From Escherichia coli (GTDB lineage Bacteria; Pseudomonadota; Gammaproteobacteria; Enterobacterales; Enterobacteriaceae), in the NCBI RefSeq assembly GCF_022846255.1, contig NZ_AP025682.1: a stretch of DNA of 64,000 bases; one strand, 5' to 3'. A program made the translations under genes and the position numbers. A model generated the notes under the pieces. That model searched no databases. It was not told where the DNA came from and was given only the letters and a program-made list of their open reading frames with translations. This document shows positions 24,992 through 25,101 of this stretch, piece after piece. Position 1 is the stretch's first letter; the number at the start of each line of letters is the position of its first letter.

Positions 24992-25082
24992 GCCGGTGCC
25001 GGATGCGGCGTAAACGCCTTATCCGGCCTACAAATGCGCTCCCCGTAGGTCGGATAAGACGCGTCAGCGTCGCATCCGACAC
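24992..25082. repeat. REP pair between phnK and phnL
   Basis: gccggtgccggatgcggcgtaaacgccttatccggcctac and gtaggtcggataagacgcgtcagcgtcgcatccgacac. Confidence 0.75.
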
Positions 25083-25101
25083 CCGAACCACGAGGCGAAA
25101 A

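Follow-up and report, generated by a model that had tools for sequence, protein, structure and literature searches.

Why are phnK and phnL, the genes for two subunits of one complex, separated inside the phn operon by a spacer filled with hairpin-forming repeats, and does this arrangement serve the operon? The stretch of Escherichia coli DNA analysed here (64,000 nt, hereafter the window) holds the phn (C-P lyase) operon on the + strand, with the same gene order as in MG1655 and FDAARGOS_497. The phnK gene (24233..24991, +; 252 aa, TGA stop at 24989-24991) is followed by phnL (25102..25782, +; 226 aa), and both products score above the NCBIfam equivalog cutoffs for the C-P lyase ABC-type ATPases (TIGR02323, 410.5 bits with a cutoff of 302.85 for PhnK; TIGR02324, 371.6 bits with a cutoff of 256.3 for PhnL). 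In RefSeq, the homologous locus of MG1655 and of further strains is annotated as phnK. The intercistronic spacer (24992..25101, +) is identical base for base to that of MG1655, and its length of 110 nt, as given in the earlier note on this DNA, is correct: the phnK stop ends at 24991 and the phnL ATG occupies 25102-25104. The same note held that neighbouring phn genes overlap by 1 to 8 nt. This is true of G-H, J-K and L-M (4 nt each), of H-I and M-N (1 nt each) and of I-J (8 nt), but not of N-O, which overlap by 14 nt, nor of O-P, which have a gap of 1 nt; these values come from the ORF coordinates and the MG1655 map.

The 432-aa open reading frame across the spacer

A mechanically called ORF (24484..25782) of 432 aa runs through the spacer; it starts with ATG, shares the frame of phnL, is offset by +2 from phnK and covers 508 nt of that gene. 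Its 5' extension (24484..25101, +) crosses the 3' part of phnK out of frame, then the spacer, and is non-coding. The check that had been proposed beforehand, codon scoring, was made with a log-likelihood model for which 21 long ORFs of the window served as training set: the extension obtained -109 bits, the phnK frame +119 bits on the shared stretch, and a wider background gave -102 bits for the extension. The GC content of the extension by codon position (0.73/0.72/0.42) is that of a shifted frame, the real genes here having 0.7/0.4/0.7. The 206 aa that it encodes are rich in Arg, Ala, Gly and Pro and match no NCBIfam family. We found that a collection of ~15 billion predicted proteins contains the exact 226-aa PhnL on at least 1000 contigs, while the exact 432-aa product is absent from it. 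Upstream of the phnL ATG this frame stays open for 675 nt in the window, for 255 nt in MG1655, for 282-357 nt in further strains and for only 48-54 nt where the alternative spacer described below is present; the length varies between strains because substitutions silent in phnK introduce stops in that frame.

The codon score, the lack of a family match, the missing protein and the stops in other strains all bear out the claim that the 432-aa ORF is an artefact. We give virtually no credence to the opposite reading, a real PhnL with an N-terminal extension, which has an open frame and an ATG start in its favour and nothing else; the codon score of -109 bits, the stops found elsewhere and a PhnL profile that begins at Met-25102 all speak against it, and it is already refuted as far as the sequence statistics go. 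TIGR02324 profile positions 1-218 align with PhnL residues 1-218, position 1 being Met-25102 (NCBIfam), and phnL itself has a codon score of +137 bits. The phnL start at 25102 is correct, and the reference annotation already places phnK and phnL rightly. Two minus-strand ORFs over the spacer, 24837-25136 and 24946-25149, were considered as well and rejected as non-coding (codon scores of -31 and +2 bits). The lesson for annotation is that long ORFs crossing REP-bearing spacers in GC3-rich operons are artefacts.

Anatomy and folding of the REP pair

REP elements are defined by a GTAG tetranucleotide 5' of a palindrome (CTAC on the 3' side in the inverted copy) with two conserved stem mismatches that form a bulge, and a BIME by a pair of REPs that stand in inverse orientation with a linker between them (PMC8266576). 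An inverted-repeat scan of the spacer returned hairpins at 24998-25011/25014-25027 and 25049-25062/25067-25080, so the two REP units reported from a first reading of the sequence are real. Unit 1 (24998..25031, - strand, inverted with respect to the mRNA) consists of the palindrome GCCGGATGCGGCGT/ACGCCTTATCCGGC and the following CTAC at 25028-25031, or GTAG when the minus strand is read. Its stem carries an irregularity composed of a G.U and a C.U (25005-25006/25019-25020), its hairpin has a folding energy of -22.3 kcal/mol (z = -4.7), and the REP tail motif CTTATCCGGCCTAC is matched exactly at 25018-25031. The linker AAATGCGCTCCCC (25032..25044, not assigned to a strand) places 13 nt between the two REP tails and forms the loop of the long hairpin described below. 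Unit 2 (25045..25080, +) begins with GTAG at 25045-25048 and continues with the palindrome GTCGGATAAGACGC/GCGTCGCATCCGAC, interrupted by a 2x2 internal mismatch; here the hairpin has -21.3 kcal/mol (z = -5.9) and 25045-25058 matches the tail motif on the minus strand but for 1 mismatch. Searched for with up to 2 mismatches, this motif is found 9 times in the window vs 0.43 expected, a count that no shuffle equalled.

Both units are thus imperfect palindromes within the 20-50 nt range, with the GTAG/CTAC tetranucleotide and a bulged stem, and they belong to a numerous population, as megablast with a 190-nt query matches a median of 27 places in each E. coli genome. They are oriented tail-to-tail, lie wholly inside the spacer, and recur with their 13-nt linker as a unit. 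An 84-nt copy of the pair with 96.5% identity is located between the convergent genes hypF and norW of E. coli O121:H19 (extracted locus 1501-1584), and from this it follows that spreading or homogenisation acts on the pair as a whole. The spacer element is a standard E. coli BIME, made up of an inverted REP, a 13-nt linker and a REP. Going by the consensus sequences of the REP classes, unit 1 is presumably of type Y and unit 2 of type Z2. The element would then be a BIME-2, the subtype that combines Y and Z2 units with the short S linker and is a target of gyrase.

In the transcript the whole BIME is predicted to fold as a single hairpin of 89 nt (24995..25083, +), in which the first REP pairs with the second; its minimum free energy is -57.4 kcal/mol (z = -8.6) and it takes up 86% of the ensemble. 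A distance of 3 nt separates this hairpin from the phnK stop on one side, and one of 8 nt from the Shine-Dalgarno sequence of phnL on the other; the stem begins 3-6 nt past the stop, depending on whether the extended helix (24995) or the REP proper (24998) is counted. The RNA of the entire 110-nt spacer folds at -61.8 kcal/mol (z = -6.3), leaving unpaired the right flank CGAACCACGAGGCGAAAAATG (25084..25101, +), which carries the phnL ribosome-binding site with GAGG at 25092-25095, 6 nt before the ATG. A scan of the spacer for sigma-70-like promoters found none, and hence no promoter for phnL-P, and a scan for intrinsic terminators was equally negative, the hairpin being followed by ACACCCGAACCACGAGG with no U-tract.

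Other repeats and RNA elements of the window

The earlier note counted this pair as the second one inside the operon, and rightly so, since another occupies the phnD-phnE spacer (19671-19774). There, both in the window and in MG1655, the REPs stand head-to-head and match naRNA4 on the minus strand with 65.3 bits, above the gathering score. The phnD-phnE spacer is itself dimorphic: in FDAARGOS_497 it measures 64 nt and holds a CTCCCTCTCCCCGAAGGGGCGAGGG palindrome (extracted locus 7012-7075). As for the phnK-phnL pair, the only Rfam matches are to naRNA4 (RF02564), at 42.7, 36.4 and 29.5 bits, all below the gathering score of 59.5, a score passed by three other BIMEs of the window. The best naRNA4 (REP325-type) match in the window lies between yjdM and yjdN (17123-17200, +; 85.5 bits), at the REP325-homologous locus. 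The yjdM-yjdN gap is ~159 nt here and in FDAARGOS_497 vs 657 nt in MG1655; it is therefore far shorter, and the REP325 cluster that is the source of naRNA4 in K-12 is much shortened in this strain. A further naRNA4-like REP pair at 56951-57021 (-; 74 bits) also exceeds the Rfam gathering score, as do a SECIS_2 selenocysteine insertion element at 43923-43977 (+; 87 bits) and the sRNA STnc630 at 11291-11456 (-; 182 bits).

Two unrelated alleles within E. coli

With positions 24700-25400 as a megablast query, the phnK-phnL locus was retrieved from 5425 of 5426 complete E. coli genomes, and every one of these has phnK and phnL annotated there. The REP-pair spacer is present in 4839 of the 5426 and was 110 nt long in each of the nine E. 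coli sampled (9/9). In turn, 546 of the 5426 carry in the same slot an unrelated, GC-rich palindromic element of 176 nt, exemplified by E. coli O8:H8 16F5M1D1 (extracted locus 592-767). Its cores are CCCTCTCCC/GGGAGAGGG palindromes, it folds at about -101 kcal/mol, and it shares with the REP allele the left edge, which is the phnK stop, and the right flank. We take this element to resemble the 'Box C' repeats. Assignment to an Rfam family was rejected, as the only matches were sub-threshold ones to plant and animal miRNAs, which we regard as spurious matches of a long hairpin. A relative with 87% identity over 126 nt was noticed in a second intra-operon spacer, that between flgG and flgH in the flagellar cluster of E. 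coli AST240 (extracted locus 1201-1327). A tandem version of the 176-nt type, with four units in 298 nt, is found on a contig labelled Pseudocitrobacter faecalis (extracted locus 1203-1500); the PhnK and PhnL encoded there share 98-99% identity with the E. coli proteins.

Among the E. coli strains with the REP pair, 8 of the 110 spacer columns vary vs ~30-35% of the third codon positions of the flanking genes, and spacer diversity is ~4-fold below that of synonymous sites; this fits either constraint or homogenisation among REP copies by gene conversion. The 8 variable columns seen across nine E. coli strains are too few to show compensation in the stems, and one of the substitutions points both ways: 25005 G>A turns a G.U into an A-U pair in the single-REP hairpin, but breaks a G-C pair in the long one. 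The remaining substitutions are uninformative, and the set as a whole favours neither fold over the other.

The slot in other bacteria

We determined, using one genome per species, that the K-L junction is usually short across bacteria. Each of the 14 Enterobacteriaceae species compared has a 4-nt overlap at both J-K and L-M and a K-L junction of 7-10 nt when the site is empty or 55-298 nt when it is filled, K-L being the only non-overlapping one of these three junctions in the family. At the empty site, the phnK stop and the phnL ATG are joined by GAGGCGAAC in Leclercia (after TAA), by GAGGCCAAC in Citrobacter FP75 (after TAA) and by GGCCAAC in an Enterobacter (after TGA). Leclercia, an Enterobacter, a Citrobacter, Hafnia and Cedecea neteri have no insert and an intact operon, and because these insert-free relatives keep the operon intact, the hairpin is dispensable for the pathway. 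As for filled sites, one REP is found in E. cloacae, RIT691 and Kluyvera, two inverted REPs in C. werkmanii, Pluralibacter and E. coli, and three in E. asburiae. Presence and absence thus occur within single genera, Enterobacter having an empty site as well as sites with one and three REPs, and Citrobacter an empty one in FP75 vs two REPs in C. werkmanii. Every insert at a filled site lies between the phnK stop and the GAGGC Shine-Dalgarno sequence, with its first palindrome 4-13 nt past the stop, and GAGGC[GC]AA[AC] precedes the phnL ATG in empty-site and filled-site genera alike.

Outside the family, the alphaproteobacteria Pelagibacterium, Devosia geojensis and Devosia nitrariae possess G-rich K-L spacers of 197-253 nt with GGGGAGGGG/CCCCTCCCC-type palindromes that fold at -99 to -130 kcal/mol; these are an independent filling of the K-L slot by a different repeat family. 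In Mesorhizobium sp. SARCC-RB16n, phnK and phnL are separated by 1244 nt (~218-1461 of the extracted locus), which looks like a whole extra CDS. As inserts recur and always lie between the stop and the Shine-Dalgarno sequence, the slot is one at which elements repeatedly land or are retained. The palindromes found there are unrelated in different lineages, each lying a few nt past the stop and leaving the phnL ribosome-binding site intact, and there is a slender chance that selection favours any large fold-out hairpin in this place and not REPs as such. If that were true, it would point to a convergent adjustment of the ratio of PhnK to PhnL, or to a deliberate uncoupling of the translation of the two ATPases.

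Possible consequences for the phn transcript

Published RNA-seq shows that transcription runs through the spacer in phosphate-starved cells: at both 2 h and 4 h the whole of phnC-P was assembled as one unit, coverage fell along the operon, and separate phnG-K and phnL-P units emerged at low expression (PMC3734233). The K/L breaks could be a mapping artefact, as reads are not uniquely mappable in REPs. Decay of REP-containing mRNAs requires RNase R and PNPase (PMC12320835), and REPs stabilise upstream mRNA according to Newbury 1987, cited by PMC12306157. The phnK-phnL element is situated as expected of a stabiliser of the Newbury/Higgins type, being transcribed within the phn mRNA and lying 3' of the upstream segment.

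The BIME belongs to a mobile or homogenised REP population, fills the gap that runs from the phnK stop to the Shine-Dalgarno sequence of phnL, and is transcribed with the rest of the phnC-P mRNA, in which it is predicted to fold as one hairpin of 89 nt or as two of 35 nt. On this basis the following course of events can be proposed. The element would not act as a terminator, and transcription would read through it. After endonucleolytic cleavage, or where 3' ends arise prematurely, the hairpin would block 3'-to-5' exonucleases; the phnC-K segment would then outlive phnL-P, and this may contribute to the falling expression along the operon. As for translation, the tight K-to-L coupling over 7-9 nt would be replaced by initiation at phnL's own retained ribosome-binding site, and a hairpin that starts no more than 6 nt past the stop may delay the termination of phnK translation. 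The base of the helix would hold the stop (3 nt away) and the Shine-Dalgarno sequence (8 nt away) near each other in space, which may explain why palindromic inserts are tolerated here.

The earlier note had suggested a segmental mRNA stability boundary at phnK/phnL, and our analysis leaves this plausible: the very stable hairpin predicted in the transcript, the lack of a terminator signature, the falling coverage and the separate phnG-K and phnL-P units all argue for it. Against a boundary built for the purpose stand the species with an empty site, the two unrelated E. coli alleles, the equimolar PhnK and PhnL and the possible mapping gaps. PhnK and PhnL are both essential and are present 2:2 in Phn(GHIJKL)2 (PMC9947105). 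We considered whether subunit stoichiometry could favour differential expression of phnK and phnL and rejected the argument, which an equimolar complex does not support (PMC9947105). The comparative data do not require the boundary reading, and an element that inserted opportunistically where the operon permits it accounts no less well for the distribution. We consider it fairly probable that a BIME at a permissive slot exerts a real but incidental effect as a decay barrier. The effects on RNA decay and translation are extrapolated from REPs elsewhere, and they would more likely be a tolerated by-product of insertion at a permissive slot than something built for the operon.

Alternative explanations

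It may also be that a REP or BIME landed in, or was converted into, the block's only free slot and has no measurable effect on phn, an explanation that we hold to be possible but doubtful. It would account well for the presence and absence of inserts within both Enterobacter and Citrobacter, for the coexistence of two unrelated alleles in E. coli next to a phnD-phnE slot that is likewise dimorphic, and for the equimolar PhnK and PhnL of the complex (PMC9947105); however, a hairpin of -57 kcal/mol placed 3 nt past a stop is unlikely to be biochemically silent, given the published effects of REPs, and a neutral spacer sits uneasily with a diversity ~4-fold under that of synonymous sites, though gene conversion could explain the latter. 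Another proposal, which we rate as unlikely, is that the stop-proximal REP would lower PhnK below PhnG-J through stalling, mRNA cleavage and tmRNA rescue, as in the Liang-Rudd-Deutscher model. According to PMC12306157, REPs less than 16 nt from a stop lower translation (citing Liang 2015); the REP stem 3-6 nt past the phnK TGA falls inside this limit, but ~half of all REPs lie equally near a stop in that same account, so the position is not special. All filled-site genera have their first palindrome within 4-13 nt of the stop, which agrees with stalling, while the need of the complex for two PhnK subunits does not (PMC9947105). Such stalling would in any case be compatible with a decay barrier, the two mechanisms being overlapping and not exclusive.

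Effects on transcription or on the DNA itself carry less conviction. That the BIME is a partial Rho-dependent attenuator, cutting transcription of phnL-P relative to phnC-K, seems to us decidedly improbable. Attenuation associated with BIMEs was reportedly described by Espeli in 2001. Such a precedent, together with the coverage falling along the operon (PMC3734233), would favour this idea, but under induction phnC-P forms a single unit (PMC3734233), the downstream-encoded PhnL and PhnM are essential for the pathway (PMC9947105), and the spacer has no intrinsic-terminator signature. Moreover, a 110-nt spacer that is mostly paired and flanked by translated genes would probably offer little RNA for Rho loading. 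Still fainter is the prospect of a role at the DNA level, with the element serving as a gyrase, HU or IHF site or as the source of a naRNA4-like nucleoid-associated RNA. Espeli and Boccard are said to have reported in 1997 that BIMEs of this REP composition bind gyrase, and the sole Rfam matches of the pair are to naRNA4, the REP325-derived RNA; against this, the naRNA4 scores of 29-43 bits fall short of 59.5, and the pair is tail-to-tail where the model is head-to-head.

The incidental decay barrier at a permissive slot is thus the reading that we retain. The effects of REPs inside operons have been debated since the 1980s and have seldom been tested with natural alleles. The phnK-phnL junction is a natural experiment in which the empty state, the REP pair and an unrelated palindrome all occur in nature, and these alleles allow the effects of an intra-operon BIME on mRNA decay, translational coupling and subunit ratios to be compared.

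Comparison with known systems

The phnK-phnL REP pair is already known in kind, and the same spacer is found in MG1655. A full-text literature search combining phnK with repetitive extragenic, phnL and REP returned unrelated papers only and nothing on this spacer, and phnK is not listed in the RepRanger supplements. The allele dimorphism and the reconstruction of the empty site are small additions, which fit the view of BIMEs as a source of intergenic polymorphism.

The 176-nt element of E. coli resembles the REP pair in occupying the same slot, in keeping the Shine-Dalgarno sequence and in its fold-out hairpin geometry, but it belongs to an unrelated sequence family. naRNA4/REP325 (RF02564) is composed of the same REP units, and differs in that its model fits the head-to-head orientation, whereas the phnK-phnL pair is tail-to-tail. 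The stop-proximal REPs of Liang, Rudd and Deutscher (2015), with nrdAB as an example, share with our case a distance to the stop below 16 nt, which is 3-6 nt at phnK. The closest likeness is with the BIMEs of E. coli at malE-malF, hisJ-hisQ and hundreds of other intergenic sites, which have the same ~35-nt units, GTAG/CTAC tetranucleotides, bulge, orientation and linker, and which likewise occupy extragenic sites near a stop, occur in high copy and vary in unit number by strain or genus. The phnK-phnL copy is positioned inside a 14-gene operon, between the genes for two subunits of one complex, and not at an operon end; nothing essential differs.
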